A stretch of 64,000 nucleotides of DNA from Candidatus Finniella inopinata (GTDB taxonomy: Bacteria > Pseudomonadota > Alphaproteobacteria > Paracaedibacterales > CAITNM01). Made by a program: the position numbers and the translations under genes. The notes under the pieces were generated by a model. That model did not search any database. It saw only the letters and a program-made list of their open reading frames with translations, and was not told the DNA's origin. The stretch covers positions 30,688 to 94,687 of the forward strand of contig CAMASM010000001.1 of NCBI GenBank assembly GCA_945860985.1. The letters run 5' to 3'. How positions within the stretch are numbered: the stretch's first letter is position 1; each line of letters starts with the position of its first letter. Below are positions 4,970-63,913 of this stretch, piece by piece.

Positions 4970-5964
4970 TTTATAAAAAAAGTTACGCAGCTCAACTTAT
5001 TTCTCTAAATCCCCCTGCAAGAGAATTTGCAGAAGCTTTTGCCCCTTCAAATATTGCCTTATGTAAATATTGGGGTAAAAAAAATTTAGATTTAAATATA
5101 CCAGCAACACCAAGCTTATCAATATCTCTTGCTGATCGTGGTACTAAAGTTCAACTATCAATTGCCCCCAGGAATTCGTTGAGTATAAACAGTAAAAATA
5201 TTACAGAAGAATCACCTGCTTTCAAGCGTACATTTGATTTTTTAGAATTATTCATGGCTAAAAATATAAAATTAGCAGTGCAAAGCGAAAACAGCATTCC
5301 TACAGCTGCTGGATTAGCATCATCTGCCAGTTTTTTTGCAGCACTTACTATTGCCATAGACAAGTTATGTAACTGGCAAGCATCTCTTCAAACTCTTTCA
5401 TGTTTAGCACGCCTTGGAAGTGGTAGTGCCTGCCGTTCATTGCACCATGGATTTGTAAAGTGGCTTGATTATGACGACCCTTTTAAATCATATGGCATAC
5501 CAATGAACGTACGTTGGGAAGAATTACGAATTGGTTTATTGATTTTTGATGATAAAGAAAAATCTATGCCATCGCGTCAAGCAATGTTGCATACCCAAAA
5601 TACTTCACCTTTATACCAAGCATGGTGTAATAATTCCCGTACTGACTTTGAAGTAGTGCATGCCGCAATCAAGAAAAAGAATTTTCAAACGCTTGGTGAA
5701 ACTGCTGAATACAATGCTCTTTCTCTACATGCCGTTATGCTTTCTGCTAGACCTTCCATTATTTACAGTCAACCTGAAACGCTGAAAGCAATCTCAAAAA
5801 TACACGCATTAAGACAAAATAGTATTCTAGTTTATTTCACACAAGATGCTGGGCCTAATTTAAAGCTAATATTTCTAGAAAATGATCTTGAGTGTATTTT
5901 AGAAGATTTTCCCAGAATGGAAGTAATAAATCCTTTTTCTAGGGTAGACAATGTAGAATCTTGA
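4966..5964 (+). CDS. mvaD: diphosphomevalonate decarboxylase
   Basis: Motifs APSNIALCKYWGKKN, AAGLASSAS and GSGSACRS. ATGA overlap with the upstream kinase. Confidence 0.9.
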   Translation: MIYKKSYAAQLISLNPPAREFAEAFAPSNIALCKYWGKKNLDLNIPATPSLSISLADRGTKVQLSIAPRNSLSINSKNITEESPAFKRTFDFLELFMAKNIKLAVQSENSIPTAAGLASSASFFAALTIAIDKLCNWQASLQTLSCLARLGSGSACRSLHHGFVKWLDYDDPFKSYGIPMNVRWEELRIGLLIFDDKEKSMPSRQAMLHTQNTSPLYQAWCNNSRTDFEVVHAAIKKKNFQTLGETAEYNALSLHAVMLSARPSIIYSQPETLKAISKIHALRQNSILVYFTQDAGPNLKLIFLENDLECILEDFPRMEVINPFSRVDNVES

Positions 5965-6010
5965 TTATATTATTCACCAGAGCAGTTTTTTATTTTATAA
6001 AAAAATCTAT

Positions 6011-7129
6011 ATGTCTGTTGGAATTGAATCAATTGGAATTAAATTGCCTTCATATGTAATTGAAGCAAAAAAGATTGCTAAACTTAGAGGAATGCCAGAA
6101 GAAAAAGCAACAATAGGCTTAGGGTGCCATATGGTTGGTCTTTGCCTTGATCAAGAAACAGTTGTTGATTTAGCTGTAAATGCCGCCAAGCGTGCAATTG
6201 CTCGTTGGAAGGGTAACATCAATGAAATTGGCATGATTGTAGTAGGAACTGAGTCATCGTTAGATGAAGCTCGTCCATTAAGTGCATGGGTGGCTGAACG
6301 ATTACAACTAAGCGGGCATATACGTTCATATGAAGTTAAGCATGCTTGTTACGCTGGTACTCTGGCGTTGCGCCAAGCCGTTGAATGGAAAAAAGCAACC
6401 AATTCGCCTAAAAGTGCCCTGGTAATTGCTGTTGACGTTTGTTTATATGCACCTGGCCATGCCGCGGAGGTAACTCAAGGAGCAGGTGCTGTGGCAATGA
6501 TTGTAGGCAAAGATTCTATTTGTTCAGTTGATCTGCAAACTTATCCATATAGCGAACCATGTTTTGATTTTTGGCGTCCAACTGGCGATACTTTTCCAAC
6601 TGTAGATAGCCAAAAAAGTTTAACTGCTTATTTAAAAGCTACGGAAAATTGTTTTAAGGCATTGTTTGCAGACCAAACTAATTTATCTTTTGAAAGCTTC
6701 AGATCTATTTGCTTTCATATACCATTTCCAAAAATGGTGCTTAAAGCATTCAGACATCTTTCTTTGTCTTTTAACCTTTCGGAATTTGAACAACATAAAT
6801 TATTGAGAGACAAAGTTTTGCCGTTCATTACGTGGAATAAAGAAGTTGGTAATTCTTATTCTGCCAGCCTTTGGATAAGTGTGGCGCAAGCATTAGAAAC
6901 TGCAAAAAACGGCGAAAAAATAGCTTGTTTTTCCTATGGTTCTGGATTTGGATCGGAACTTTTTGTACTAGAGCGCAACCATAATAGCGGAGATTGGGCA
7001 GAAGATATAAAAACAGATTTATCTAAACGTAAGGAAATCTCTATCGAAGAGTATGATAAATGGCGTAAAAAAGAGGTTTTTAAATTAGAGAAGCAAACAA
7101 TTCCAACTGATCTAACCGAAGTTGCGTAA
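6011..7129 (+). CDS. mvaS: HMG-CoA synthase
   Basis: 372 aa. Catalytic Cys context EVKHACYAGT, plus FHIPFPKM and GNSYSASLW, typical of bacterial MvaS. Confidence 0.9.
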   Translation: MSVGIESIGIKLPSYVIEAKKIAKLRGMPEEKATIGLGCHMVGLCLDQETVVDLAVNAAKRAIARWKGNINEIGMIVVGTESSLDEARPLSAWVAERLQLSGHIRSYEVKHACYAGTLALRQAVEWKKATNSPKSALVIAVDVCLYAPGHAAEVTQGAGAVAMIVGKDSICSVDLQTYPYSEPCFDFWRPTGDTFPTVDSQKSLTAYLKATENCFKALFADQTNLSFESFRSICFHIPFPKMVLKAFRHLSLSFNLSEFEQHKLLRDKVLPFITWNKEVGNSYSASLWISVAQALETAKNGEKIACFSYGSGFGSELFVLERNHNSGDWAEDIKTDLSKRKEISIEEYDKWRKKEVFKLEKQTIPTDLTEVA

Positions 7130-19929: not shown

Positions 19930-21258
19930 ATGCCTTTGGCTACTCTTACAAATCTTAATAAAATTCAATGGCATGAAGGCATGCTATTGAGTCCACAACA
20001 TTTTCAATACGGTGAGCTACGAATTGAGCAGCTGCTATATGCTAGCTCTCAAAACAGTGCCTACTGCAATTGGGGAGTTTTAGATTTCGCAATAGATAAA
20101 AATTTACTTGCTCAAGGAATTATTGAACTTTCACAACTTTTAGCAATACTTCCCGACGGAACAATAATTTTACATAACTCAGAACTTTCCAATGAAAATA
20201 CTCCACCCTTAAATCTTCGCTACAATTTAGCTGATCTAGGACTCAAAGGCAGTGCTGAGCTTTCTATTTGCTTATGTCTACATCAAGTTTCTAATAGTAA
20301 GCAACGCTATGAATCAATCGAATACAGCAATGTTGTTGATGAAAATAGTAGTGATAATATTATAACTTTGCCAATTCTAAGACCTAAAATCTTTTTAAAT
20401 CCTAACGAGGTTCCGAGTGAATGCATTGGTTTTCCAATAGTAAAACTAAGCTTTGATGGCAAACAATTTTCACTGCAGAAGTTTCTTCCGGCTTCGCTAA
20501 ACATTCCACAAGGAGATCCAATACGGCAGCAGCTAAGCTCAATTGTTTTAAACATAAGACAAAAAGCAGCTTTCCTTATTAATAAAACCCAACAAACTAC
20601 ATCTGCTCCTATTTTAAGGGACACGCGAGAAACTCTAAAACCATTAATCGCCTGTCTTTGCATTCTTGAGCCATTAATTGGACTTGAAAGGTTGCACCCA
20701 GAAAGATTATTTGATCACTTGCTTAATGTGGCCACCAACTTATTGCCAATGCAAACCACACAAATTCCAGGAGTACTACCGACATATGATCCTTTTGATC
20801 CTGGAAGCTGTATAGAATTCTTTTTAAATCTATTTGAAAAAACAATTTCAACAGTTCAGCAAAAATTCCTTAGCATTCCATTTCATCAACAAGATCGCTT
20901 ATTTTATCTGCACCTACAGCCAGCGTATCTTAATGACACAGTGTACATAGGATTTCGTTGCCCTGATGGAATGAGCGAAAAGCAAATGTTTGAATGGATA
21001 CAAGAAGCAATTATCAGTTGTGATGATAAAATTGATGTTGTAACCACAAGAAGAATTTCTGGGGCATCAAGAACCGCTGTCGCTGATGATGATACTGAAG
21101 AACTAATTCCTAACCCAGGAACAATCATTTTTAGCTTTAAAAACAGTGACGAATTTATTAAAGCTCGTCAAAATTTAAATATTTTTAACCCAGGAGATAC
21201 TCAAGAGAAACGACCTATAGATATCACTTTATTTGTACGCCAGAATGATTCTACATGA
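19930..21258 (+). CDS. tssK: type VI secretion baseplate protein TssK
   Basis: 442 aa. N-terminal IQWHEGMLLSPQHFQ signature of the TssK/ImpJ family. First of four contiguous T6SS genes. Confidence 0.85.
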   Translation: MPLATLTNLNKIQWHEGMLLSPQHFQYGELRIEQLLYASSQNSAYCNWGVLDFAIDKNLLAQGIIELSQLLAILPDGTIILHNSELSNENTPPLNLRYNLADLGLKGSAELSICLCLHQVSNSKQRYESIEYSNVVDENSSDNIITLPILRPKIFLNPNEVPSECIGFPIVKLSFDGKQFSLQKFLPASLNIPQGDPIRQQLSSIVLNIRQKAAFLINKTQQTTSAPILRDTRETLKPLIACLCILEPLIGLERLHPERLFDHLLNVATNLLPMQTTQIPGVLPTYDPFDPGSCIEFFLNLFEKTISTVQQKFLSIPFHQQDRLFYLHLQPAYLNDTVYIGFRCPDGMSEKQMFEWIQEAIISCDDKIDVVTTRRISGASRTAVADDDTEELIPNPGTIIFSFKNSDEFIKARQNLNIFNPGDTQEKRPIDITLFVRQNDST

Positions 21259-22055
21259 AAATTTCTCAAGTTTCTCATCATGGAATTTTAAGTGAAGAGT
21301 TTGATGTTTTTTACTACGAGCTTCTTCGCATTAAAGAACTCGCATTAAGGAGTTCACATGAAACCATTATTCCAGTAGATAATCCTGAAGATGAGGCTAA
21401 AACCATTACAGTCTCAGGCCCTGTACTTGCTTTACAAGAACGCTTCACAACATTTTTTGAAAAACAAAGGGAAAGGTTATATCGCGTAGCAGTTGGCCCA
21501 AGCTCTCTATTTATTCAAGAAGCACAATATATATTTGTCGCAATGGCTGATGAAATAATGATTAATCAAAGCTGGCAAGGATCTGACTATTGGCGACAAA
21601 ATTGCTTGGAAACCAAAATTTTTCAAACCCAAATTGCTGGAGAACGTGTTTTTTTTCAAATAGATGGGTTATTAAAAACTAATGATCCTATGCAGCGAGA
21701 ATTGGCTAGACTTTACCTTCTGAGCTTATCTTTAGGTTTTCAGGGAAAATTTCGTACTCAAAGCAATATTCAGATTTTATCTTACAAGCAACAACTGTTC
21801 AGCTTCATTTATCATCGCAACCCAGATATTACAAGCGGAACAAGAAACTATATTTTTGAAGATTCATTGAATTACGTCTTCACAGAAGCTCCAGCTAAAG
21901 GACTTCCAGATCTTAAGGCCTGGTCTGCTACAGCAATTGCTGTACTCTTGGTATACTTGTTCATCAGTTACGGGGTATGGATGATTATCTCTGACGATCT
22001 TCACGAAGTATTACAATCAATTTTCCACCTTTCCAAACAAGGTCCGGTGGTATAA
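21255..22055 (+). CDS. tssL: type VI secretion membrane protein TssL (DotU family)
   Basis: 266 aa. ARLYLLSLSLGFQGKF DotU motif and a single C-terminal TM (AIAVLLVYLFISYGVWMII). No peptidoglycan-binding extension. ATGA overlap with tssK. Confidence 0.8.
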   Translation: MKISQVSHHGILSEEFDVFYYELLRIKELALRSSHETIIPVDNPEDEAKTITVSGPVLALQERFTTFFEKQRERLYRVAVGPSSLFIQEAQYIFVAMADEIMINQSWQGSDYWRQNCLETKIFQTQIAGERVFFQIDGLLKTNDPMQRELARLYLLSLSLGFQGKFRTQSNIQILSYKQQLFSFIYHRNPDITSGTRNYIFEDSLNYVFTEAPAKGLPDLKAWSATAIAVLLVYLFISYGVWMIISDDLHEVLQSIFHLSKQGPVV

Positions 22056-25000
22056 ATGCCAACAAATGCTAGCAGCAAATTTAATGACTTTATCCAAATA
22101 ATCCAAAGTCACACCAACAGTTTGTCAAGCCTCATTTTCTTATTATTATTTTTTGGCTTATTGGTAATGGTAATTTGCGTTTTAGTTATCAATATGAGTT
22201 TGCGTAAAGATAAAAAAATCAAGCTAGATGAAAAAAGCTCTCTATTAAAACGCAAATTTGCGCTGCCACCACTTGGTGGAATGATCACCTCGTTCTTGGT
22301 ACAACAAGGTTGGATTCAGGTTAATTCAATCAGCCAAATCTTTTTAAAAGGATTAGAGTTTTTAAAAAAACACTTCGGAGAACACGCAATCTATAAGCTG
22401 CCGTGGTACCTGGTTTTAGGAGCTAAAGATTCAGGAAAATCCACTGTAGTAAACCACACACAACTGCATGAACCACATAGCAGTCCAGACTTTAGTTTTC
22501 ATGAACCAAATCCATCTATACGTTGGAAATTTTTTAGCCGTGGAGTATTAATTGACGTTGCAGGAAGACTATTCCTAAACAACCCTGAAAGTGAAACCGA
22601 TACAGTATCATGGCGTAACCTTTTAATTTTGCTATCCCGCTATCGTGCCTCTATGCCAATAAACGGCATAATTTTATGTATTAGCGCTAAAGATCTTTAC
22701 GGCAATGAAAAACTATCGCCAGATGCACTACAGGTTCGTGCCAATGCAATAATGCACACTATAAACAAGGCCCAAACAAGCTTACGCATAAGACTACCGG
22801 TTTATGTGGTAGTTACTTATTGTGATACCATTCCAGGATTTAGCAGTTTGTCTCAGGCACTACCACGCCAAAATCAAGGTAATATTTTGGGTTGGTCAAG
22901 CCCGTATGATTTACAATATCTTTTCACGCCCAATTGGATGGACGAAGCATTTCACTATTTTGACGAAAAAATTGATTGCTTACGAACAGAATTATTAAGC
23001 TTGAGTGTTGACTCTAGTAACACTGATAGCTTATACGTTTTTTCAAAAGAAATTTTAACCATTCAAGAAAGATTGGCTAGCTATGTAAATCGTATTTTTC
23101 ATAGCTCAGTTACGCACGAGGCGCCACATTTACGCGGAGTTTATTTTACCGGCAACAGTGGTATTGATTTAAATGATTTAGAGCCAGCACCAGGACTCTC
23201 ATTGCAAGCTAATACCAACCCAGCGCCATCATTGGTATTTCTGCGAGATTTGTTTCAATATAAAGTTTTTTCTGAAATTGGCATTGCTCGTCCTTTAACT
23301 GGTAAAATAGCAACCTTAAATCGCGGAGTTAGTATTATTAGAAATACCACAATTTGCTTTACCTTAATTGGTACCTATGGATTATTTAATGCCTACGACA
23401 CATTTCAGGAAAAAAAAGAAAGAATCTTACCTGTCCTTTCTAAAATGAGCAGCCTCATGCGAAGTATGCAAAATTTAAGGATCGATGAACCTGGTCATAC
23501 AGCATCGTTATTTGATACATACGCTCGCCAACTTATGGAAATGATGCAAGAACTACAAAGAACTGAATTTTTCTCAGTAATGGTCCCTGCATCATGGTTC
23601 AGCCCACTGCACAAGGATCTTCATGCTGGATTACAGGTAGCGTATCAAGAAATTGTAATTCGCACCATATATGTTGATTTGTTATTAAAAGCTAGAGAAC
23701 TATTACAACTAAGACCAACTATGGCTGATCGCTCAACTTCACTGGCAGCATTACTTAATCCATTAAATTCAAGTGAATACATCTTACTCAAAAAATACGT
23801 TGATGGGCTTTATGAACTAAACGATATGCTGTTTAAGTTTAACAACCTAAAAAGCGCTCCTGATGCTCGTGATCTTGACAGTCTAGTAATGTATACATTT
23901 AACTCGCACTTACCAGAATCATTTATGGGCAGTTATGGTGATTTTCGTAAGCTACTAAATGAATCTTCATACCCACTAATTGACCTTAAGCCATATATGC
24001 AGATGGCAAGACAAACTTTATCGATTATTTATGAGCACTTTTTAAACGCTTTATTTTCAAAAAATGATTCGATGACTTTAATTTCACGCATCCAAGTTTT
24101 GGTAGATCAACTCCAAAGCCAAGGTCACAAACAAGCAATCGATCTTACTGCACTTCGTGATGCCGTTGGTGATTTAAGTACCACCGCACCATCTTTAGGA
24201 GAATTAGGGGCGACGTGGATGGATGGTAAAATTTTGAATCTTGGCAAAGAGTTTGATTCTGTACTAGACCATATTGACATGTCACCTTTGTTTGGGAGAG
24301 ACGTCACCCAGTATTTAGTTGATCAAACTGCCATATGCTTTAACCGTTTTAAAAATTTCTTACTAGGCGTAAATGAATCAATTGTAGATAAAAATACAAA
24401 GCAACAATCTTTTCCCCCATCTCATGGTTTACTAACATTAGAAAAACTTTTAAGTAGCTTGTTTAAATTAAGCCTTATGGTAGCCCCCAGTGGGCCAACA
24501 TTTTCCACAAGCATACCAGCTGGAAAATTGGTTTATTGGGATACAAGTCTTGCACAACAAGCTCTCAATATTATGAAAGATTTTGATGGCTTCATTTCTA
24601 AGGATTTATTGTCATACCCTCTTTCTATACAGGAAAATTTAAAAATTGCGTCTCGTATTAACTTGCAAGAGGTTCTAATAGGCACTCTAGGAAAAGCACA
24701 AACTTTTATAGATACCCCAAAAAATATACATCCAGGATCTACCGCAGAACGCATGCTACGCGCACAAATTAATGATTTTAAAGCAGTTGCAGATACATTA
24801 GGCAGATTACTAGAAATCCTAAAACAAGATGATGTAAGTAAAGCTTACCTCGATTTACGTGAATTATTGTGTTTTCAGTCCCAATGGTTGCTAGAACAAA
24901 TAGACACTTACATTAAGCAACATAAAATTTACAAAATGAAACAAGAAGATTTCGGTTGGTGGGATGGTAAGTCAGGTGCCGCAATAGCAGCATTTGCCGT

Positions 25001-26333
25001 AAGGGACAGCAATGACCTAAAACATTATACAACAGTACAAAGAGACTTTTTAACCGCTACCGTTAATGACTTCGCCAAACCAATTATCCAATTGTTAAAA
25101 ACTCCAGCTTTTGATGGAGAAGATAGTCGTGATGAAACCCTAATAAATCGTTGGATTCGCATTACCGATCAAGTTGAAGCCTACAACAAAAAACAACCGG
25201 ATAATTCCTTAGCACAACTAGAAAATTTCATTCTTAAAGATCTCAATTCATGGGATTACAAAGACGTAATTAAAAATATTAAAGCTAAAGATCTACAACA
25301 TGATTCCGGTGACTACCTACTTGTAATACTTAAGGATATAAAGATTAAAATTCTAAGCAGAGCAGAAGTTTTACAAAGGCAACAAGCAATAGCCAACTAT
25401 GAAAATATAGCAAGTTTTTTCAATAAAAATCTGAAAGGAAAGTTTCCATTTGTTGGTGCAAAACTTGAAAAAAATCAGGGAGAGGCTAATCCTGAAGATA
25501 TCCGAGAATTTTTCGGTTATTTTAAAGAATATGGAGATTCAACAAAAGCGGTACTAGATCAGCTTTATCAAATTGGATCACCAATGAAAGATGTTGTAGC
25601 ATTCCTAATCTCCATGGAAAATGTTCGCAAATTTTTGCAATCATACCTAAAAGATCCAAGTATTGATAAGCCAACTTTCAATATAAAAGTTGATTTCAGA
25701 GCAGCAACAGATAAAGAAAGCGGCGGACAATTAATTGTTGATTGGTACGTTAAAACAGACGAAATCACCAAAATTGATAAATATGATAAAAAGACTGATG
25801 GCAGCTGGACTTATGGAAATCCTATTACCATTGGCTTTAAATGGCCAGATGGAGAATCAACACCAAAACCAACCTCTGATTCTGGACAATCAGCCCTAAA
25901 AGTAGAAGGATCAACAGCTGAATTTGTCTACGACAGTCAGTGGGCACTACTATGGATGCTACGTGATTGTATGGCTCCACAAGGATCTTACTCCAAAATT
26001 GCCACCCCCAACCCATATGTACTAAAGTTCAGTTTGCCATTAACAGACCAAACTTATACCACTGTGTTTAACGCCATTAGCCTGTGTGAACCTTCAAGTA
26101 AACCGAAGGGCCCAGGAAAAATAATTACCGTACCAATTTTTCCAACCACAGCCCCTGATTTACCAGAAAAAATTAAAGAAATTAAAGATAAACCTGTGTT
26201 AACCGAAGGAGTAATTGAAGCAGCAGATTTTAATAGCCTTATCCCAGTCGGTGAACCTAAACTTGAAGACGAAGACAAAGAAGCTGAAGCTGAACCAAAA
26301 GAAGAAAAAGATGAGAAAAAGAAAGAAGAGTGA
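22056..26333 (+). CDS. tssM: type VI secretion membrane protein TssM (IcmF family)
   Basis: 1425 aa. N-terminal TM, Walker A LVLGAKDSGKST, a further TM near residue 430, a long periplasmic region and an acidic KE-rich C-terminal tail. Confidence 0.85.
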   Translation: MPTNASSKFNDFIQIIQSHTNSLSSLIFLLLFFGLLVMVICVLVINMSLRKDKKIKLDEKSSLLKRKFALPPLGGMITSFLVQQGWIQVNSISQIFLKGLEFLKKHFGEHAIYKLPWYLVLGAKDSGKSTVVNHTQLHEPHSSPDFSFHEPNPSIRWKFFSRGVLIDVAGRLFLNNPESETDTVSWRNLLILLSRYRASMPINGIILCISAKDLYGNEKLSPDALQVRANAIMHTINKAQTSLRIRLPVYVVVTYCDTIPGFSSLSQALPRQNQGNILGWSSPYDLQYLFTPNWMDEAFHYFDEKIDCLRTELLSLSVDSSNTDSLYVFSKEILTIQERLASYVNRIFHSSVTHEAPHLRGVYFTGNSGIDLNDLEPAPGLSLQANTNPAPSLVFLRDLFQYKVFSEIGIARPLTGKIATLNRGVSIIRNTTICFTLIGTYGLFNAYDTFQEKKERILPVLSKMSSLMRSMQNLRIDEPGHTASLFDTYARQLMEMMQELQRTEFFSVMVPASWFSPLHKDLHAGLQVAYQEIVIRTIYVDLLLKARELLQLRPTMADRSTSLAALLNPLNSSEYILLKKYVDGLYELNDMLFKFNNLKSAPDARDLDSLVMYTFNSHLPESFMGSYGDFRKLLNESSYPLIDLKPYMQMARQTLSIIYEHFLNALFSKNDSMTLISRIQVLVDQLQSQGHKQAIDLTALRDAVGDLSTTAPSLGELGATWMDGKILNLGKEFDSVLDHIDMSPLFGRDVTQYLVDQTAICFNRFKNFLLGVNESIVDKNTKQQSFPPSHGLLTLEKLLSSLFKLSLMVAPSGPTFSTSIPAGKLVYWDTSLAQQALNIMKDFDGFISKDLLSYPLSIQENLKIASRINLQEVLIGTLGKAQTFIDTPKNIHPGSTAERMLRAQINDFKAVADTLGRLLEILKQDDVSKAYLDLRELLCFQSQWLLEQIDTYIKQHKIYKMKQEDFGWWDGKSGAAIAAFAVRDSNDLKHYTTVQRDFLTATVNDFAKPIIQLLKTPAFDGEDSRDETLINRWIRITDQVEAYNKKQPDNSLAQLENFILKDLNSWDYKDVIKNIKAKDLQHDSGDYLLVILKDIKIKILSRAEVLQRQQAIANYENIASFFNKNLKGKFPFVGAKLEKNQGEANPEDIREFFGYFKEYGDSTKAVLDQLYQIGSPMKDVVAFLISMENVRKFLQSYLKDPSIDKPTFNIKVDFRAATDKESGGQLIVDWYVKTDEITKIDKYDKKTDGSWTYGNPITIGFKWPDGESTPKPTSDSGQSALKVEGSTAEFVYDSQWALLWMLRDCMAPQGSYSKIATPNPYVLKFSLPLTDQTYTTVFNAISLCEPSSKPKGPGKIITVPIFPTTAPDLPEKIKEIKDKPVLTEGVIEAADFNSLIPVGEPKLEDEDKEAEAEPKEEKDEKKKEE

Positions 26334-27523
26334 CCATGAGTGAATTACCAGACACATCTTCAAATTTTTTTGATCAATTACTAATACCAATCGCAACAAA
26401 TGATGGGGTAGGTGAATGGCTTCGCTATGACCCAACATACGGCAAAATTCGTGATGCCAGACGCGAAGAAGATGACGGCATGAATCGTGAACCATGGGAA
26501 GGTGAACTAAAACGTGCCAATTGGCAAGAAGTAGAACGTTTATGTGGTGAATTGTTAACCACCAAAACTAAAGATCTGCAACTTGTTATGTGGTTTCTAG
26601 AAGCAAGAATTCATCTTCAAGGTATTAATGACTTACAAAATTGCACAGACTTCTTGTTAAAATATATTCAAAATTTTTGGCAAAACACCTATCCACAATT
26701 AACAGATGACCCTACTCAAGAATTTAGAATTCATTTGCTTGAGGCATTTTTAAGATCAGCTTGTGAGCAAATTGTACTAGAACCAATTAACGAGCTCTCC
26801 CAATTTTTTACCTCGCCAATTAATCTATCTAAATGCTTTGAAGCTGATAATTTAGAGAAAAGCTCAAAACGCGGCGGTGATGCTGCAGAATTTTTTCAAA
26901 AAGCTGTTTTAAAAGGCCTAGTCACTATGGATAGGATTCGCAATGCCCTACGCGAAGTTAGCCAAGAAAATGGGGTTTTAAAAGTAAAATTAATAGAAGA
27001 AATTATAAAAAATATAAATAGTATAGACACCCTCCTTTCTGAAAAAATAGGCAATGAATCCCCACGTTTCGATGAAATAATTAATCTTTTAAGTGAACTA
27101 AAAGGACTATACAATCTTTGCCAAAAGGTACCGGAAGAAAAGTCTTCTAATCAACCAGACCCCACAAAACTTACCAAAAGCCTTTCAGAAGAAGAAACCA
27201 CAGAAAAAACTAACAAAGATGCCAACGTTATCAACGACAGAGCAGGTGTTTATAAAGCACTTGGACAACTGGGAGATTTTTTAATAACCCTAGAACCACA
27301 TAACCCATCACCAGCTTTAATAAAACTTGTAAGCAGCTGGGAAAACAAGACCCTATCACAAATATTGGCAGAGCTACAAACAAGCCCTGTAGAAGTTCGT
27401 TCATTAATTAACATGCTAGCAAAAGCAACAAAAAACGAAAATCTACCAACCATTGCCAGTGGACAGAATCAACCACAAACATCAAATGACCTAGATCAAC
27501 TTTCTAGTCTAATTGGTCGCTAA
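26330..27523 (+). CDS. tssA: type VI secretion protein TssA (ImpA N-terminal domain)
   Basis: 397 aa. ImpA_N-like GEWLRYDPTYGKIRDARREEDD...WQEVERLCGELLTTKTKDLQLVMW. GTGA overlap with tssM (alternative ATG at 26336). Confidence 0.75.
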   Translation: MTMSELPDTSSNFFDQLLIPIATNDGVGEWLRYDPTYGKIRDARREEDDGMNREPWEGELKRANWQEVERLCGELLTTKTKDLQLVMWFLEARIHLQGINDLQNCTDFLLKYIQNFWQNTYPQLTDDPTQEFRIHLLEAFLRSACEQIVLEPINELSQFFTSPINLSKCFEADNLEKSSKRGGDAAEFFQKAVLKGLVTMDRIRNALREVSQENGVLKVKLIEEIIKNINSIDTLLSEKIGNESPRFDEIINLLSELKGLYNLCQKVPEEKSSNQPDPTKLTKSLSEEETTEKTNKDANVINDRAGVYKALGQLGDFLITLEPHNPSPALIKLVSSWENKTLSQILAELQTSPVEVRSLINMLAKATKNENLPTIASGQNQPQTSNDLDQLSSLIGR

Positions 27524-27524
27524 A

Positions 27525-27564
27525 GCTAACAAAGTTTCTTTACCGCACTTACTAAACCTTTAAT
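27525..27564 (-). repeat. displaced relic copy of the hemH 3' end (left arm of a 40-bp direct repeat)
   Basis: Matches 30906-30945 at 36/40 positions in the same orientation. In the hemH frame it reads IKGLVSAVKKLC-stop versus IKCLANAVKKLCQRMLP-stop. Confidence 0.8.
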
Positions 27565-27585
27565 CAAGCTGTTAATGGTATCTCA

Positions 27586-27621
27586 GAGGCAGCTTAAAAC
27601 TGCCTCCGGATTTTAATTTTT
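27586..27621 (+). terminator. intrinsic terminator downstream of tssA
   Basis: Stem GAGGCAG (27586-27592) / CTGCCTC (27600-27606) with a 7-nt loop, followed by cggaTTTTaaTTTTT. Confidence 0.6.
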
Positions 27622-27625
27622 AAAT

Positions 27626-27661
27626 GAGAGCATCTTATCGACCAACCTTTGGAATGCTCTC
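27626..27661 (-). terminator. possible hairpin terminator after the S8-like gene
   Basis: 8-bp stem GAGAGCAT/ATGCTCTC with a 20-nt loop. On the minus strand it is followed by ATTTAAAAATT. Large loop and weak U-tract. Confidence 0.3.
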
Positions 27662-27667
27662 CATTTA

Positions 27668-30600
27668 TTACCCTGAAGAACTTGCCGGTGGTATTGCTGC
27701 TACTAGAGCAGCCACCGGTGCTGCGGCTGATGGACCTGTTGCTGGAGTAGTAGTACCCGGTGGGGGTGCTGCGGTCTTCTTCTGGGGGCGGAGGTGCGGC
27801 TGCTGATCGAGCAGAACCGGTGCTGCGGCTCTTGCAGGTGGAGGAGGTGGTGGAGGTGCGCCTCCTGGTATTGCTACTGCTCCCCCTGGTATTGCTTGTA
27901 GTGGTGCTGGTGCTGGTGCAGGAGCAGCCACCGCGACTGCGCCTTTTGGTAGAGGTGGTGGAGGTGGCACTCCTACTCCTGCTCTTGCAGGTAGTGGAGG
28001 AGGCGGTGGTCCTTCTACTCCTGCTCTTGCTGGAGGCGGTGGTGGTGTAGGAGGTGCACCATGTACACGTGCGGCTGGAGCTGGAATAGCCACCGCGTTA
28101 GAAGATGCTGCTCTTGCAGAATGTACCTTATCATTTACTATTAATATAAGTTCCCGGCTTAAACAACTTTCCTTAAGCTGTAAAAGTGGCACTTTAGTAC
28201 TACCCTTACCAGCAATCTCAAAAAATATGGAAAACAGGGGGTTGTAGGACTCATTATATGCATTTTGCTGCAAATCATTCATGAATGATTGAATAAGATG
28301 TCCGTTGTTTGAAAATAGAACTTGTTGTATTAGGTAACCTTCTAGCTTTAGTTTACTGTGCGGATTTGGGAGATTATAAATAGCAAATCTTTCCTCTATT
28401 TTTAACGTTTGCCAAAAACTCTCTATCCACTGAGCTATCTGTGATTGATCAGCTACTGGAAATAGCATAAGTAGGATATCTCTTAATACTTCCTGTTGAG
28501 ATATTAATACTTCATTTTGATATGCTGCTAATTTCCATTTAACCACTGATTCTTTCTGTTTAGATTCGGAAGATTCTACTATTTTATCTTTCAACTGACT
28601 ATGATTGTCTTTTGCATCTACCCATCTGAAAAAGTCGTGTGCTAAAGATTTAAATTTATTATGCGCCATCCATGCAAATGGTGTTTCTGGACTTTCTCCT
28701 AGCTTAAATTCTTTTTCTCTATCTTTTCCATTTTTTCCTGCCATTTTCTTTGCCATTTGACAAGACTTTTCTAGAATTTTTCCCCAAAACTCGTTCCTAA
28801 TTTCAGCACTACCATCAGCCGCAGCACCGCCACCTCCCCCTCCGCCTCCGCCTCCACCTCCACCTCCACTACCACCTATTCTACTTGATGTAATAAGAGT
28901 GTTATGGCTCAGCGGAGGAGTAAAGCGCGATCCTCGTATAGTACCAGAAAAGTTTAATAGCTTTTGTTGTATTAAACTGTCATCCTCGGGATAGGTTTGC
29001 CAAAATTCCCTATAATCTTTTTGGATCTTTGAACGATTTGCTTCTAAACGTTCTTTTATTACTGCATCCTGCTGCTTTATTCTTGCATTAGCATAAATTA
29101 TGGCGTGTTCAATATTTAATATGCCCATTCCAAATACAGAAGAGTCAAAAGCTTCTTCTACTAGGACAAGGGTTTTGCCATTATCTAATGCATGAAATTG
29201 AATTGCTGGATCAGTTGGGGCTTCTGAAACATGAATACATAGGTTAAAGCGTTTAACAAAATCTTTTTTAGTAATATAAAAATCCCGATCGGCAGATTGG
29301 AGAACACATTCTTTTAAAAATCCCGGGGTAATCGGGTATTCTGGATGGTTTGTTCTTATAAACTCTATCAATAAAGCAAGAGCTCCTGTAACAGCTGGTG
29401 CAGCCATGGAAGTTCCTGCATTATACTCATAACCATCGTTTATGCTCATGGAATAAACGTTTGTTCCTAATGTATACACAAAGTTTTCCTGGAAAGGTAT
29501 GTGAGAACCTGGTCGGTTTGAATAAACCGCTGGGCAAGCATCCTGATCAAGGCTACCTACTAAAAGTAAGTGTTGCCATTCAGGCTTAGCAGAAATATCG
29601 CGCAAATATTTTTCAGTAGGATTAAATGGTTCGTCGCAGTTATATGAGTTATTACCAGCTGATAGAGCAATAATATAGTGATTATTTCCTTTTTCTTTTG
29701 TGTTTTTTAACATATATTCAATTTCCACAAATTGCCCGTTATTTCCATCGCTAGCGAAAGAAGCATTTATAATATCTATACTTGATAACGCATTGTTAAG
29801 TTCTTCCTTCTGTCTATCCGTCAATTTCTGAGGATCATCTGTAACGTTCTGAGGATAAGGTGTAACGCTGAGATAAGGGGTAACGCTTGGGAGAGAAAAG
29901 TATGGGGCTTCTTGCATAATTAGATAAAGAACATGCGCACCATGATATATAGCTTTGGTTTCTTTCGTGGGCGTTCCAAAAATTTTTACAAGACCCTCTA
30001 GCGCGCTATGGCCACTAGTAAGGCCTTCTTCTATGGCCAAAACAGTTACTCCTTTTCCTGTTAATCCAATATTTTTGTGAATGGAAAATGCACCTGTAAA
30101 GAGGGGGGAAGAAATTGTTAAGCTATCAGCCATTGCTTGCAATGCTTGTACACTTTGCTCGTCTAGTGTCTCTATTTTTGCCTTTACAGAGTCAAGACGC
30201 GCACTTCGCTGACCAAGACCCTCTGGACTTCCAATAGAAAGGTGTCTTAAATTTTCAATTCTTAATCTTATTAGAGCAACTAAGAGTGGTCTTAGTTTTG
30301 TTAATACCCATGGCTTAAGCCTAAACAGATCTTGTCCATAGTCCCTGTCGATTTTTTTTAAGAAGTCGCCCTCGTTTTGCCCTGTAGCCACCTCCCCAGT
30401 TGCCGCTGCAGCTGCCGCTGCAACTACCTTTGCAGCTGCCGCTGCAGGGGTGAGAGTAGCCATGTTACAGCGCTCTAGTATTTCCTCGCAAATTCCTCCT
30501 ACTTCTTCTTTTACTTCATTGATTACCCCGACCTGTGTTCTTCGTAATTCAGCAATAACAGCTGTATTGTTATTTTGTGTTTGTACTTGTGATTTTTCTA

Positions 30601-30811
30601 ATCTACTGACTTTAAGCTCAACCGCCTTTAGTTGAGTTATAAGTTTACCTATCTCGTCTGTATCCTCGTCTACCTTCTCGGCAGAAATTTCTTCTGTAGA
30701 ATCGTAAATACGCTTTGTACTTGGTTGATAATCTGCTACACGAGCAGCGCGTGCAGCAGCATCTAAGGTGTTTATAGTTGCTAATAGCGCAAATATAAAT
30801 ATGAATTGCAT
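27668..30811 (-). CDS. secreted multidomain subtilase-like (peptidase S8) protein with poly-Gly linker and polyproline C-terminal tail
   Basis: 1047 aa. Signal peptide MQFIFIFALLATINTLDAAARA. N-terminal coiled-coil/Ala-rich region. S8 motifs GKGVTVLAIEEGL (Asp-box position reads Glu), YHGAHV, ALSAGNN and GTSMAAPAVTG. GGSG14 tract. About 220 aa of unknown domain. Pro/Ala/Gly-rich tail. Confidence 0.8.
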   Translation of the reverse strand: MQFIFIFALLATINTLDAAARAARVADYQPSTKRIYDSTEEISAEKVDEDTDEIGKLITQLKAVELKVSRLEKSQVQTQNNNTAVIAELRRTQVGVINEVKEEVGGICEEILERCNMATLTPAAAAAKVVAAAAAAATGEVATGQNEGDFLKKIDRDYGQDLFRLKPWVLTKLRPLLVALIRLRIENLRHLSIGSPEGLGQRSARLDSVKAKIETLDEQSVQALQAMADSLTISSPLFTGAFSIHKNIGLTGKGVTVLAIEEGLTSGHSALEGLVKIFGTPTKETKAIYHGAHVLYLIMQEAPYFSLPSVTPYLSVTPYPQNVTDDPQKLTDRQKEELNNALSSIDIINASFASDGNNGQFVEIEYMLKNTKEKGNNHYIIALSAGNNSYNCDEPFNPTEKYLRDISAKPEWQHLLLVGSLDQDACPAVYSNRPGSHIPFQENFVYTLGTNVYSMSINDGYEYNAGTSMAAPAVTGALALLIEFIRTNHPEYPITPGFLKECVLQSADRDFYITKKDFVKRFNLCIHVSEAPTDPAIQFHALDNGKTLVLVEEAFDSSVFGMGILNIEHAIIYANARIKQQDAVIKERLEANRSKIQKDYREFWQTYPEDDSLIQQKLLNFSGTIRGSRFTPPLSHNTLITSSRIGGSGGGGGGGGGGGGGGAAADGSAEIRNEFWGKILEKSCQMAKKMAGKNGKDREKEFKLGESPETPFAWMAHNKFKSLAHDFFRWVDAKDNHSQLKDKIVESSESKQKESVVKWKLAAYQNEVLISQQEVLRDILLMLFPVADQSQIAQWIESFWQTLKIEERFAIYNLPNPHSKLKLEGYLIQQVLFSNNGHLIQSFMNDLQQNAYNESYNPLFSIFFEIAGKGSTKVPLLQLKESCLSRELILIVNDKVHSARAASSNAVAIPAPAARVHGAPPTPPPPPARAGVEGPPPPPLPARAGVGVPPPPPLPKGAVAVAAPAPAPAPLQAIPGGAVAIPGGAPPPPPPPARAAAPVLLDQQPHLRPQKKTAAPPPGTTTPATGPSAAAPVAALVAAIPPASSSG

Positions 30812-30891
30812 ATATTTCTTTTAATATTGTCTTATTAAAGAATTATAAAAAGAAAAAGGTAAAAAATTAGTTAATCACGCGTAGCTGATTG

Positions 30892-31860
30892 TTATGGCAA
30901 CATGCGCTGACAAAGTTTCTTTACCGCATTTGCTAAACATTTAATGTAGAGGGGATTGTTTGCTAACGCAGGAACCCTTCCATAAAAAGGTATTCCAAGC
31001 TCCTTAGCTTTAATGGCATAATGAATATCGAGCTCAACCAAGGTTTCTGAGTGTTCTGAAACAAAGCTAATCGGAACTACCACAACAGGCCTTAGCTCTT
31101 TTGCTGCTTTTTGCAACTCAACATCTATAGTTGGCTCCAACCATTTAAGTGAACCTACTTTGCTTTGGTAACACACCACGTACTCAACATCAAAAATCTT
31201 CATTACAGAACTCACAGTGGACTCTATTTGATTTTGGTACAGATCTCCACCATCAATAACTTTTTGGGGCAAGCTGTGGGCTGAAAACAAGATTTTTGGG
31301 GTTCCATAGGAATGGGCCTCACTTAAAATTGGAGATATCAATTCTTGATGTGACTTTATAAAATCTGGATCATCATAATGACTTTTTAAAATAACCGTTT
31401 TAGATTTCCATTTAACCGCGACCTCATTCCACTCATCGATGGTTGATTGTGTTGTCGTCTTTGAAAACTGTGGATATAAAGGGATTAAAACAACTTTATC
31501 TGGATTAAATGTTTCTAAAGTATTAATAACTTCTGCAGCTCTAGGATTCCAATAACGCATCATTGGCAAGACAATTGCTTGATAATCAACATTGAGTAAT
31601 TCTTCCAAACACTTTGCTTGTATTGTGGTGTTTTTTAAAATTGGAGACATGCCGCCCATTTTACTATAAATTCTCTTAGCCTTGGGGGCTCTTAGCAAAG
31701 AAATCCAATGCGCTAACAAAAATCTCCAAGGGTTGGGGAGATCAATAATTGCCCGATCATAAAAAAGATTAAATAAAAATGGACGGACAGAAGCAAGGGA
31801 ATCTGGTCCACCTAATTTTGCTAATATTACAGCGACTTTCGTTTTTGAATCACCCAGCAT
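30892..31860 (-). CDS. hemH: ferrochelatase
   Basis: 322 aa. Motifs VILAKLGGPDS, FSAHSLP and VSEHSETL. Confidence 0.9.
   Translation of the reverse strand: MLGDSKTKVAVILAKLGGPDSLASVRPFLFNLFYDRAIIDLPNPWRFLLAHWISLLRAPKAKRIYSKMGGMSPILKNTTIQAKCLEELLNVDYQAIVLPMMRYWNPRAAEVINTLETFNPDKVVLIPLYPQFSKTTTQSTIDEWNEVAVKWKSKTVILKSHYDDPDFIKSHQELISPILSEAHSYGTPKILFSAHSLPQKVIDGGDLYQNQIESTVSSVMKIFDVEYVVCYQSKVGSLKWLEPTIDVELQKAAKELRPVVVVPISFVSEHSETLVELDIHYAIKAKELGIPFYGRVPALANNPLYIKCLANAVKKLCQRMLP
30906..30945 (-). repeat. right arm of the 40-bp direct repeat (functional hemH 3' end)
   Basis: See 27525-27564. Lies inside the hemH coding sequence. Confidence 0.8.
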
Positions 31861-32839
31861 CTCTTACCAACCGCACAAACTCTTCAACATGGCCTATAGG
31901 TGTGTCTGGTAAAATGCCATGTCCTAGATTAACAATAAATGGTTTATCTTTAGAAAATTCCAAAATATTAAACACATCCTCTTTAAAGTTACCATTTAGT
32001 AGTTTTTTAGAATCTAAGTTACCCTGTAAACAAGAATTAGTATGGGGAAGGTCAAGTAAATTAACATCTTCACTAATGCCAAAGGCTACATTTAACTGAT
32101 CAAGAGCAACCATAGCATCACCAGCAATTCCACGCCCATAATAAATAATTTTTGCATCAGGTATTGCATTACGAATACTTTGAATAATTTTTGTAGCAGG
32201 ATCAAATAACCACTTTTTTCTGTAATTAGCTGGTACAGCAGCAGCCCATGATTCAAATAATTGAATAGCGTTAGCCCCTGACCTTAATTGTGCAATAGCA
32301 TGATCCGATATTACCTCAACCAATTTATTGATTAATTTTTCAAACATTGGCCAATTTTGCACAAAGCTAATCAATTTAGGAAAATCATTTGTTTTACCAG
32401 AGTTAATCATGTAAGAAGCTAAGGTCCAAGGACACCCAACAAAACCTAGTAAAGCTTTTTCTTTAGATAGCTCATTTCTTACTAATTGAATTGTTTTATA
32501 AATGATTTCTATTTCTGATTCGATATTTCCATTAATAATTTGATCCCAATTTGGCTTATCAAGCATAGGGCCAACACCTTCTTTAAAGCTAACATTTTGG
32601 CCTAAAAAGTGTGGTATTATTAAAATATCACTAAAAATAATTGCTGCATCAAAATCAAAGCGTTTAATTGGTTGTAATGTTGCCTCTAAAACCATTTCTT
32701 GGTTCAAACAAAAATCCATAAAATTTTTAGATTTTTTACGAAGTTCTCTGTATTCAGGCAAACATCTACCTGCTTGGCGCATTATCCAAATAGGCTTAAT
32801 GTTTTCAACAGAACCATTTAGTGTTCTAATTATTTTCAT
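31850..32839 (-). CDS. hemE: uroporphyrinogen decarboxylase
   Basis: 329 aa. N-terminal PIWIMRQAGRCLPEYR signature. 11-nt overlap with hemH. Confidence 0.92.
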   Translation of the reverse strand: MKIIRTLNGSVENIKPIWIMRQAGRCLPEYRELRKKSKNFMDFCLNQEMVLEATLQPIKRFDFDAAIIFSDILIIPHFLGQNVSFKEGVGPMLDKPNWDQIINGNIESEIEIIYKTIQLVRNELSKEKALLGFVGCPWTLASYMINSGKTNDFPKLISFVQNWPMFEKLINKLVEVISDHAIAQLRSGANAIQLFESWAAAVPANYRKKWLFDPATKIIQSIRNAIPDAKIIYYGRGIAGDAMVALDQLNVAFGISEDVNLLDLPHTNSCLQGNLDSKKLLNGNFKEDVFNILEFSKDKPFIVNLGHGILPDTPIGHVEEFVRLVRDAG

Positions 32840-54201: not shown

Positions 54202-56082
54202 ATGTGCGGTATTGCCGGCTTTTGGGATTCATTGCATAAATTTCCCGTTCACGAACAACTGGCTCAGGATATGGCGCACCAAATTCATACACGCGGTCCT
54301 GATTCTTTTGGTGTGTGGATTGATGAACAGAAAACAGTAGCATTGGCTCACCGGCGTTTAGCAATTTTAGATTTATCTCCAGCTGGGCATCAGCCGATGA
54401 CTTCGGCTTCAGGGCGATATGTTATGGTTTACAATGGGGAAATTTTTAACAGTAATGAGTTAAAGTCAAATCTTGCCAATATACCCTTTAAAGGACACAG
54501 CGATACTGAGGTTATGTTAGCTGCATTTGATGCTTGGGGGATTGAATCTTCAGTTAAGTTATTTATTGGTATGTTTGCTTTTGCGGTTTGGGATAAGCAG
54601 AACTGCACTCTTTCTTTGGTAAGAGATCGCGTTGGTATAAAACCTCTTTATTTTGGCTACATGAACAATGTTTGGTTATTTGGGTCGCAACCTAAAAGCT
54701 TAATGCCACATCCGGCTTTTGAAAAAAAACTTAATAATAACTCAGTTTCTGAATTTTTTCAGTTTGGTTATGTTCCGGAAGATGCTTGCATATTTGAAGG
54801 TTTACAAAAAGTTAAACCTGGAACGATAGTTGAATTAAAGACGAATGGAGAATATTTAGTTAACTCTTATTGGGATCTTGCAACTGAGATTGCTAGAGCG
54901 AAAAGTTTATCGACAGAAAGAACCGATTCTGAATGGATTGAGTCGACTCACGATTTACTTAAAGATGCCGTTAAGCGTAGATGTCAGGCAGATGTACCTT
55001 TGGGGGCATTTCTTTCTGGTGGTATTGATAGCTCTTTAGTCGTTAGCTTGATGCAATCACAATCAGTTGAGCGTATTAAAACTTTTTCGATCGGGTTTGA
55101 TATTCTAAATTATAATGAGGCGCCATTTGCCAAAGCAATTGCTAGCCATTTGGGTACAGATCATCACGAATTTTATTTATCAGCTCAAGACGCTCAGGAA
55201 GTTATTCCAAATCTTGCATCAATATACGACGAACCATTTGCCGATGTTTCACAAATTCCAACTTATTTGGTCTCTAAAATGGCTAGGGAACATGTGACTG
55301 TAAGTCTTTCAGGTGATGGTGGCGATGAACTTTTTGCAGGGTATAATCGCTATATTTTTGGCCAGAAATTATGGAAAATTAAAAATTGTCTGCCTGGTTT
55401 TGTACAAAAAATGCTGCCTGGACTTAGGTATGTACCACAAGTGATTTGGCAAGGGTTAGAAAAACTACCAGGCCTGCCAAAACAATTGGCTGATAAAGTT
55501 GAAAGGGGTGTTAGATTATTTGAAAGCAAAGATCTGAGCGATTGTTATCGCATGCTGGTTAATCATTGGGAAATCGGTAAACAGTGTTCTTTTCCCGTGC
55601 ATGCCGATTTGAAAAATAATATCGAAAATTTTCAATACTGGGATATGTTGACCTATCTTCCTGGTGACATTTTAACTAAAGTTGACCGGGCTAGTATGGC
55701 TGTAAGTTTGGAAGCACGTGTCCCTCTACTAGATCATCGTTTAATATCATTAGCTTGGCAATTGCCGCAGCATTTAAAATTGCGTGATGGTAAGGGAAAA
55801 TGGGTTTTGAGAGAAATTTTAAAATCATATGTGCCTACTGAATTGTTTGATCGACCTAAAATGGGATTTGGAGTACCAATTGATACATGGCTGCGTACTG
55901 ATTTAAAGGACTGGGCACATGATTTATTGTATTCTCAATCATTAGATGAATTTTGCATAGATAAGCAAACTATTGATTTTATTTGGAATAAGCATCAAAC
56001 CGGATCACACAATTACCAATATAAATTATGGTGCATATTAATGTTTCAACAATGGCGTCAGCAATATATTTCATTACAATAA
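54202..56082 (+). CDS. asnB: asparagine synthase (glutamine-hydrolysing)
   Basis: Start placed at ATG 54202 so that the Ntn nucleophile is Cys2 (MCGIAGF). SGGIDSS PP-loop. Confidence 0.9.
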   Translation: MCGIAGFWDSLHKFPVHEQLAQDMAHQIHTRGPDSFGVWIDEQKTVALAHRRLAILDLSPAGHQPMTSASGRYVMVYNGEIFNSNELKSNLANIPFKGHSDTEVMLAAFDAWGIESSVKLFIGMFAFAVWDKQNCTLSLVRDRVGIKPLYFGYMNNVWLFGSQPKSLMPHPAFEKKLNNNSVSEFFQFGYVPEDACIFEGLQKVKPGTIVELKTNGEYLVNSYWDLATEIARAKSLSTERTDSEWIESTHDLLKDAVKRRCQADVPLGAFLSGGIDSSLVVSLMQSQSVERIKTFSIGFDILNYNEAPFAKAIASHLGTDHHEFYLSAQDAQEVIPNLASIYDEPFADVSQIPTYLVSKMAREHVTVSLSGDGGDELFAGYNRYIFGQKLWKIKNCLPGFVQKMLPGLRYVPQVIWQGLEKLPGLPKQLADKVERGVRLFESKDLSDCYRMLVNHWEIGKQCSFPVHADLKNNIENFQYWDMLTYLPGDILTKVDRASMAVSLEARVPLLDHRLISLAWQLPQHLKLRDGKGKWVLREILKSYVPTELFDRPKMGFGVPIDTWLRTDLKDWAHDLLYSQSLDEFCIDKQTIDFIWNKHQTGSHNYQYKLWCILMFQQWRQQYISLQ

Positions 56083-56152
56083 GCGCAGTACACTATCCCC
56101 GTTCAGGTCAGAAAATTAAACGGGAATAGTTACATAAAACAATTATAAATAC

Positions 56153-57526: not shown

Positions 57527-57724
57527 AAATAAAACTTTATATTAGAGTGTTTGTGTATTTAATACTAATATACAAATATTAATAAAGTGTTACTTAATAG
57601 ATAATATTTTTATTAAGTAATATTTTAGGAAAAATTAAAGCGTATACTTATTATTTAAGATGAGCTTATACATAATTTGTGATATTTTTAGAAAGATTTA
57701 AGATATTAAGAGTTTTTCAAATTA

Positions 57725-63097: not shown

Positions 63098-63158
63098 AAA
63101 GTAGACTAAAAAAACTCCTGGACAATTTTTTATTTTTGTTTAAAAAATGCACTAGTAT

Positions 63159-63905: not shown

Positions 63906-63913
63906 TATTGCTT

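Follow-up and report, generated by a model that had tools for sequence, protein, structure and literature searches.

In Rhs arrays, the displacement of C-terminal modules has been attributed to homologous recombination with circular intermediates, and it is accompanied by direct repeats of partial core sequence that vary in length (Jackson et al. 2009, PMC2935791). In Vibrio cholerae, the sequential displacement of type VI secretion system (T6SS) effector–immunity modules is attributed to homology-facilitated illegitimate recombination (Kirchberger et al. 2017, PMC5361080). Elements that integrate into the 3′ ends of genes include the cis-mobilizable elements (CIMEs), which by definition have lost their integration genes and retained attL and attR (PMC5704250). 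Here we compare with these systems a locus in a 64,000-nt stretch of DNA from Candidatus Finniella inopinata (contig CAMASM010000001.1; the whole stretch is referred to below as the window), in which 40 bp from the 3′ end of hemH, the ferrochelatase gene, occur twice, on either side of a single gene for a subtilase-family (S8) protein. We find that this 40-bp pair is very probably the scar of an insertion, with a displaced relic of hemH left beside the T6SS gene tssA.

The two copies (27525-27564 and 30906-30945) form a direct repeat in which 36 of 40 positions are identical and which contains a 19-nt exact core. Similarity between them breaks off at both 40-bp edges. When the core ACAAAGTTTCTTTACCGCA was searched for with up to 3 mismatches, 2 sites were found in the 64 kb, both of them the repeat copies, compared to a chance expectation of 0.06, and 2 matches were reached in 0 of 100 shuffles. 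The 40-mer pair was also the second-best nonself match in an all-against-all blastn of the window (E = 8.7e-8). On the minus strand, the right copy reads IKCLANAVKKLCQRMLP followed by a stop codon and terminates a 322-amino acid (aa) open reading frame (ORF) that matches Ferrochelatase in Pfam; the left copy reads IKGLVSAVKKLC followed by a stop codon, starts 1 nt past the TAA of the ImpA_N/TssA ORF, and places its own stop codon 2 nt from that of tssA. The insert between the copies (27565-30905) measures 3,341 bp, and its sole long ORF (Peptidase_S8) lies in the same orientation as hemH. A first-pass annotation, made from the letters and predicted ORFs without database searches, had described this arrangement; we recovered the 36/40 direct match, the strand and frame of each copy, the abrupt edges, and the single co-oriented ORF as it had reported them.

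Four positions differ between the copies. Three are nonsynonymous and alter, in the relic, residues that all hemH orthologues have in common (C to G, N to S, and A/E to V); two of these are the Cys and Asn conserved in the IKCLxNxV motif. At the fourth position the relic has TAG and the working copy CAG, and hemH therefore extends 4 more codons into insert DNA. The right copy is the functional hemH end, and the left copy is a displaced, decayed relic.

Relatives were found with the hemH protein among Holosporales/Paracaedibacter-like metagenome-assembled genomes (MAGs) labelled Finniella, Odyssella, or “Alphaproteobacteria bacterium”; a scan of metagenome contigs with tssA as the query returned no relative. 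In 16 related loci (L003-L008, L010, L012, L013, and L090-L096, several of which are probably the same organisms sampled twice), hemE-hemH is followed directly by a convergent tssA-tssM-tssL-tssK block, with no S8 gene and no second hemH end. These empty junctions have zero spacer: the first in-frame hemH stop codon lies 10-80 nt inside tssA, on the opposite strand, and in L012 the hemH and tssA stop codons overlap by 2 nt. Because all 16 junctions lack the S8 gene and have a single hemH end each, the 3,341 bp between the copies are an insertion. Because the relic stop codon lies 2 nt from the tssA stop codon, as in the empty-site geometry, the relic stands at the position expected for the ancestral hemH end. 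With no spacer between hemH and tssA in the ancestor, an insertion that survived must have carried or created a spare hemH end. The first-pass annotation had proposed integration into the hemH 3′ end, leaving one working copy and one relic, and had asked whether S8-free relatives still carry both copies. The empty junctions answer in favor of its proposal.

A separate observation concerns the hemH tails of L003-L008, L010, and L013, which are Cys-rich, variable, 15-30 residues long, and antisense to the last 24-80 nt of tssA. The convergent coding overlap of hemH and tssA in these loci is unusually long.

The layout hemE-hemH-S8-relic-tssA is identical in L083, a relative that is ~92% identical to the window in this region. 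The working hemH end of L083 reads ...IKCLENAVKKLCQSLVP and a stop codon (the equivalent tail is CQSLVP and a stop codon), and its relic is identical to the window relic at 39 of 40 positions, with the same three substitutions. In the genes flanking the insert, synonymous divergence (dS) between the window and L083 is ~0.22. The presence of the same insertion and a near-identical relic in so diverged a relative indicates that the insertion, and most of the decay of the relic, predate the split of the two lineages. We conclude from this comparison that the insertion is old and fixed and is neither a recent hop nor an active or demonstrably mobile element.

The locus has itself been subject to recombination. 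Compared with L083, the window is 97-100% identical between 17.6 kb and ~26.6 kb and ~90-92% identical thereafter (3′ tssA, relic, S8, hemH, and hemE); dS is 0.05-0.10 across the genes gltA to tssM but 0.21-0.25 across those from tssA to hemE. The sharp step in identity, from ~98% to ~91%, falls inside tssA and shows that the S8 block and its flanks were exchanged by homologous recombination between diverged relatives. The cargo can therefore spread via flanking homology alone. L083 and a further relative, L168, share one sample, yet are 92-97% and 98.6% identical to the window, respectively. L083 also has a 74-nt segment in its hemH-S8 spacer (2816-2889) that is absent from the window, with the surrounding sequence conserved. 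Across the relic and the adjoining spacer (window 27524-27667 vs L083 5905-6048), 9 of 144 positions differ, a divergence below the synonymous-site level (~19%, p ~1e-5) but not significantly different from that of the overall flank (~9%, p = 0.16). It is possible that this noncoding stretch, including the relic, is under constraint, for example as a terminator or 3′ untranslated region (3′-UTR).

A duplicated 3′ end also occurs at gap, near the right edge of the window. The gap repeat (63003-63089 and 63913-64000; 83% identity over 88 nt, E = 1.5e-17) is the window's best self-match. L082, which comes from the same organism as the window (1 mismatch in 2,632 nt), extends past the window edge, and there the repeat covers 253 aligned nt at 73% identity and is ~240-250 nt long. 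Included in it are ~95 nt from the end of gap, the intergenic region, and the signal-peptide codons with which the next ORF begins. In the second copy, stop codons interrupt the gap frame, and the ORFs that follow the two copies (ORF-A and ORF-B) are ~20% identical to each other; an exact-protein look-up of the 248-aa ORF-A gave no match. In L169 (94% gap identity), gap is followed by three tandem ORFs of 234-242 aa, with decayed gap relics of ~20 nt ahead of ORF2 and 55 nt ahead of ORF3, each accompanied by a leader that is conserved; leader 2 and leader 3 share 84% identity and are closer to each other than to leader 1. The gap relic of the window is also present in L168, which at this locus is 98.6% identical to the window in nucleotides. 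Relatives at 88-89% gap identity (L170-L173) are without these ORFs and have smpB or an antiporter gene convergent after gap. The ORFs of the array belong to one family (pairwise E down to 1e-15, 20-28% identity), with 67% identity between ORF-B and L169 ORF2.

We therefore read the gap site as a tandem array of fast-diverging secreted proteins, in which each unit starts in the gap 3′ end, rather than as a single bracketed insertion. The window lineage has two units, and L169 has three. The first-pass annotation had seen the same layout at gap as at hemH; the duplication it reported is real, but it is longer than at hemH, runs past the window edge, and heads every unit of the array. The array occupies 63003-64000 in the window, 1635-3481 in L082, and 8900-11587 in L169, with family members of 231-250 aa, and its noncoding leaders (73-84% identical in nucleotides) contrast strikingly with its bodies (20-28% identical in protein).

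In neither orientation does the hemH repeat have a motif in common with the gap repeat (all p > 0.1), and the lengths of the two duplications are six-fold apart (40 nt vs ~240 nt). The window contains a further lineage-specific insertion, a papain-like protease gene placed exactly at the junction of asnB and an Sdh5-like gene. This gene is present in L168 and absent from L169, where asnB and the Sdh5-like gene overlap, and it is opposite in orientation to its neighbors. The absence of a shared motif, the unlike lengths, and the scarcity of duplicated sequence at this third insertion leave a single sequence-specific system unsupported, and the shared cargo-insertion mechanism that the first-pass annotation had suggested for hemH and gap is unsupported on the same grounds. 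A self-comparison of ~393 kb of clade loci revealed no further 3′-end duplication outside the window lineage. The segment inserted with the papain-like protease gene includes a 45-nt AT-rich palindrome (57583-57627), placed immediately upstream of the gene.

We found no integrase, transposase, or resolvase-invertase domain in any of the 47 window ORFs of at least 120 aa (Pfam), and no recombinase among the genes called on L083. No tRNA gene adjoins the insert (the window tRNA genes are at 14742 and 35054), and there are no inverted repeats at the insert ends; on each of these points the scans of the 64 kb agree with what had been noted from the sequence. RuvC, MutL, and UvrB are encoded in the window, and RuvB just past its edge. 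A transposon or insertion sequence would be expected to bring a transposase, terminal inverted repeats, and a duplication of 2-14 bp; here there is neither transposase nor terminal inverted repeat, and the duplication is 40 bp.

We favor, with some hesitation and at slightly less than even chances, a mechanism that is homology-anchored rather than site-specific or purely illegitimate. The explanation as a whole, an old and fixed insertion scar produced by homology-anchored recombination, stands in our judgement about midway between right and wrong. In the ancestral state, hemH and tssA lay tail to tail without a spacer, with stop codons touching or frames overlapping. A module (27565-30905) made up of an AT-rich promoter region, the S8/polyproline gene, and a hairpin terminator was inserted 40 bp upstream of the old hemH end. 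Incoming DNA in which a hemH 3′ end was already linked to S8, and whose source could have been a close relative or a further copy within the same population, would have paired with the resident hemH without a dedicated recombinase. Resolution could have occurred by a single crossover of a circularized fragment (Campbell-type) or by one homologous and one illegitimate join, and either route would displace the resident hemH 3′ end downstream. The copy joined to hemH was kept under selection and gained its 4-codon tail from the insert, and the copy on the tssA side turned noncoding and lost the Cys and Asn. Ordinary homologous recombination within the flanking genes later led to exchange of the whole block among lineages. 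The gap site could follow the same general logic, with a housekeeping 3′ end as the anchor and older units moved downstream, iterated into an array.

Several features favor the homology-anchored mechanism: the insert is co-oriented with and directly adjacent to the anchor gene; the repeat lengths are variable and motif-free (40 nt at hemH, ~240 nt at gap, and 55 nt and ~20 nt in L169); the CAG/TAG difference and the new tail need no extra mutation; the absence of a recombinase is accounted for; and so is the array at gap. At both sites a partial copy of the upstream gene, variable in length (40 nt for hemH, at least 95 nt of coding sequence for gap), stands at the head of the displaced piece, and the new module stands directly after the anchor and co-oriented with it, with the older material beyond (hemH-S8-relic; gap-ORF-A-relic-ORF-B). 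Near-identical leaders before dissimilar bodies are seen at gap; at hemH, with no displaced gene, this feature does not apply. The hemH/tssA locus also undergoes homologous recombination with diverged relatives.

Other observations weigh against it. No donor with hemH linked to S8 away from tssA was found among 167 hemH loci and the contigs with S8 homologues, and the S8 homologues in other genomes are unlinked to hemH. A length of 40 bp is close to the lower limit for RecA-dependent pairing, and microhomology at an illegitimate joint is readable only with the donor sequence. The nearest S8-free relatives are rearranged after hemH (prfA follows hemH in L002/L088, at 75% hemH identity, and HPr/EIIA-like genes in L089, at 67%), and the state just before insertion is therefore inferred from more distant relatives and from the relic. 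At the asnB/Sdh5-like junction there is no long duplication, with at most ~2 nt duplicated, so that insertion in this lineage is possible essentially without duplication. Finally, the recombinase search covered the 64 kb and a few extra contigs, and an integrase elsewhere in the genome is possible.

Such an integrase is the premise of site-specific integration, which we consider unlikely. A small element with an attP mimicking the hemH 3′ end would have been integrated by a tyrosine or serine integrase since lost, or acting in trans, leaving a CIME-type islet with att sites at its ends and no recombinase. The footprint follows the classical pattern: the insert lies between direct repeats, one of which falls within the 3′ end of a conserved gene kept intact by the copy that the element brought, and relatives have empty sites. 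The 40-bp core is within the range of such att sites, and an element-derived working end would readily account for the CAG/TAG difference and for the new tail. However, no integrase is present in the 64 kb or in L083, either in the element or beside it, and the single-gene insert holds no remnant of any mobility gene. As the hemH and gap repeats are without a common motif, one integrase cannot explain both. The same att sequence was not found with cargo elsewhere or on a vector: no hemH-like sequence flanks the S8 homologues in L084-L087 or the homologue beside vgrG, and tblastn searches of plasmid and phage collections with S8 gave no match. The insertion is also stable across ~8% nucleotide divergence.

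We regard as similarly doubtful a purely illegitimate insertion, in which foreign or paralogous DNA was joined at a staggered break or replication template switch, a 40-nt overhang was filled, and selection kept a product that spared hemH and tssA. The spacer-free junction would let only insertions that recreate a gene end survive, the duplication length varies between sites, and the papain-like protease is a case of illegitimate, junction-precise insertion of a single secreted-protease gene in this very lineage. On the other hand, an extra TAG-to-CAG change (or the reverse) would be needed exactly at the old stop codon, a 40-nt stagger is unusual, and the duplication at gap, which runs through a promoter and signal peptide common to nonidentical cargo genes, stays unexplained.

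Local tandem duplication from 40 bp inside hemH, followed by divergence or deletion, is very unlikely at hemH, although it may apply in part to the gap array, where the 84% identity of leaders 2 and 3 in L169 fits an array that expanded by unequal crossing-over once an initial duplication had taken in the gap end. At hemH, only tssA follows the relic, no tssA, tssM, or hemH remnant other than the 40 bp is present in the insert, and the S8 gene is absent from 16 of 16 empty sites and so was not copied from local sequence. That the pair is a chance similarity, or a member of a dispersed repeat family (such as repetitive extragenic palindromes or miniature inverted-repeat transposable elements) unrelated to hemH, as the first-pass annotation had proposed to check, has a negligible probability and nothing in its favor but the shortness of the repeat, since the 64 kb holds just two copies, at the expectation and E value given above, one of which is the hemH coding end and the other in the position and frame of the ancestral hemH end, with the pair kept in L083. 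We also set aside a parallel with organelle homing-endonuclease ORFs that carry a duplicated host-gene 3′ end, as the cargo here has no nuclease domain.

The cargo of the hemH insertion begins with a Sec-type N terminus (judged by eye), followed by the subtilase domain, a run of 14 Gly, and a C-terminal polyproline region in which three PPPPPLP-type repeats resemble profilin/SH3-binding tracts. By eye, the subtilase motifs read HGAHV, SAGNN, and GTSMAAP, and the usual Asp motif reads IEEG. There are only four real homologues. The closest, P0001 on L083, is 57% identical by BLASTP and 67% over aligned codons; another, P0004 (40% identical), is convergent to a vgrG gene. The ratio of nonsynonymous to synonymous divergence (dN/dS) against the L083 orthologue is 0.97 over 942 codons, compared to 0.04-0.24 for the neighbors. 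The S8 gene is fast-evolving.

The region upstream of the S8 gene (30812-30891) is weakly similar to a promoter-like motif found upstream of S8 homologues elsewhere and is kept in L083 save for the 74-nt indel. A scan for the sigma-70 consensus gave no match in this region, and promoter and terminator scans gave nothing above shuffles. At the other end of the insert, a hairpin at 27586-27606 is kept in the window and in L083 (folds of both strands), with a U-rich tract after it on the plus strand. This hairpin is probably the terminator of the tssA operon, read through the relic, although a simple terminator scan did not call it. In L084 (9902-9973 and 12591-12661) and L087 (174-240 and 2950-3050), an AT-rich motif of ~70 nt containing the palindrome-like TTATTATATTAATAA ends at the ATG of the S8 homologue and of the next gene. 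The motif is common to the two genomes and is probably a shared promoter/operator of a putative secreted-protein regulon. The direct repeats around S8 homologues in L084-L087 were considered as an att-like element and rejected: they are the promoter/5′-UTR motif before consecutive start codons and are unrelated to hemH.

Features of the hemH, gap, and asnB loci, in window coordinates unless a relative is named
Feature	Coordinates	Strand	Description and basis
TssK-like (T6SS_VasE)	19930-21258	+	Pfam
DotU/TssL	21255-22055	+	Pfam
IcmF/TssM-like	22056-26333	+	Pfam
tssA (ImpA_N)	26330-27523	+	Pfam; last gene of the T6SS block tssK-tssL-tssM-tssA; ancestral convergent neighbor of hemH (synteny in 16 relatives)
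Homologous-recombination breakpoint, window vs L083	26600-26750		Inside tssA; sliding identity profile
Relic hemH end	27525-27564	-	Last 12 codons and stop, orphaned; now within the tssA 3′-UTR
Insert-borne spacer	27565-27667		103 nt; GC-rich hairpin 27586-27606; 96/104 aligned positions identical to L083
S8 cargo gene	27668-30811	-	1047 aa; Pfam Peptidase_S8 5e-15
S8 upstream region	30812-30891	-	80 nt, AT-rich, came with the insert; alignment to the L084 upstream region
New hemH tail	30892-30905	-	Codons RMLP and stop, from inserted DNA (sequence reading)
Working 40-bp copy	30906-30945	-	Continuous with the rest of hemH, in ORF 30892-31860
hemH (ferrochelatase)	30892-31860	-	Pfam Ferrochelatase 7.5e-93, profile positions 1-315 of 317; orthologues in relatives 57-75% identical
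hemE (uroporphyrinogen decarboxylase)	31850-32839	-	Pfam; upstream of hemH
Papain-like (Peptidase_C1) protease insertion	56075-57721 (gene 56153-57526)	- (gene)	1,647 bp, lineage-specific, exactly at the asnB/Sdh5-like junction
gap copy 1	63003-63238	+	Genuine gap 3′ end (to 63097), intergenic promoter region, start of cargo ORF-A (63159-63905); L082 1635-1870, offset 61368
gap copy 2	63913-64000	+	Pseudogenized gap 3′ end, promoter, start of ORF-B; continues to ~64164 beyond the window; L082 2545-2796

Elsewhere in the window (2068-7129) there is a complete-looking mevalonate cluster, with genes for hydroxymethylglutaryl-CoA (HMG-CoA) reductase, two GHMP kinases, diphosphomevalonate decarboxylase, and HMG-CoA synthase; the same genes occur in L170/L171. 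The mevalonate pathway is uncommon in Alphaproteobacteria.

Nothing at these loci points to a new kind of mechanism; they are a new and fairly ordinary example of known recombination footprints. The hemH site nevertheless provides a clean, datable case of an intracellular-symbiont-like bacterium gaining secreted-protein genes without visible mobile-element machinery. Taken with the array at gap and the mosaic left by recombination, it suggests that ordinary recombination, with housekeeping genes as anchors, both builds and exchanges the effector repertoires of this clade. For the annotation of MAGs, such relics matter because they could pass for att sites or pseudogenes. A broader reading, which we consider a long shot, is that housekeeping 3′ ends (hemH, gap, and perhaps others) serve as recurrent landing pads for the successive addition of complete secreted-effector genes in Holosporales-like symbionts, by recombinase-independent, homology-anchored displacement or by an unrecognized trans-acting recombinase with several unrelated targets. 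If that were true, the displacement principle of Rhs, contact-dependent inhibition (CDI), and T6SS modules would extend from toxin loci to ordinary genes as anchors, and the two sites seen here in 64 kb would be a small part of a pattern found across the genome.

Set against the described systems, the locus resembles Rhs arrays, in which a new 3′ module likewise follows directly on conserved sequence, the old 3′ piece lies downstream with a partial copy, and there is no integrase. The match is close for the gap array, where each unit has a relic, a leader, and an unrelated-looking body, and the hemH site is a minimal case. Unlike in Rhs arrays, the anchor here is the 3′ end of an unrelated housekeeping gene (hemH or gap) and not the core of a toxin gene, the cargo is a complete gene with its own promoter and not an in-frame C terminus, and at hemH 40 bp were displaced and no gene. 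With the T6SS modules of V. cholerae, the locus shares a conserved upstream anchor, a possible illegitimate far join, old material downstream, and the lack of a known integrase; in addition, a T6SS gene block ends at the hemH site, and a vgrG gene neighbors one S8 homologue. The S8 protein differs from those modules in having a Sec-type signal peptide (by eye) and no immunity gene, which leaves it at most a candidate T6SS effector, and its anchor, hemH, is on the strand opposite the T6SS genes. CIMEs and other 3′-end integrative elements (PMC5704250) have in common with the hemH site the bracketing repeats, the intact target gene, the absence of an internal recombinase, and the existence of empty sites. 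The hemH site departs from them in that its insert consists of one gene, neither a cognate integrase nor a related intact element is known for it, and the repeats of the two sites, hemH and gap, are unrelated and of unequal length.

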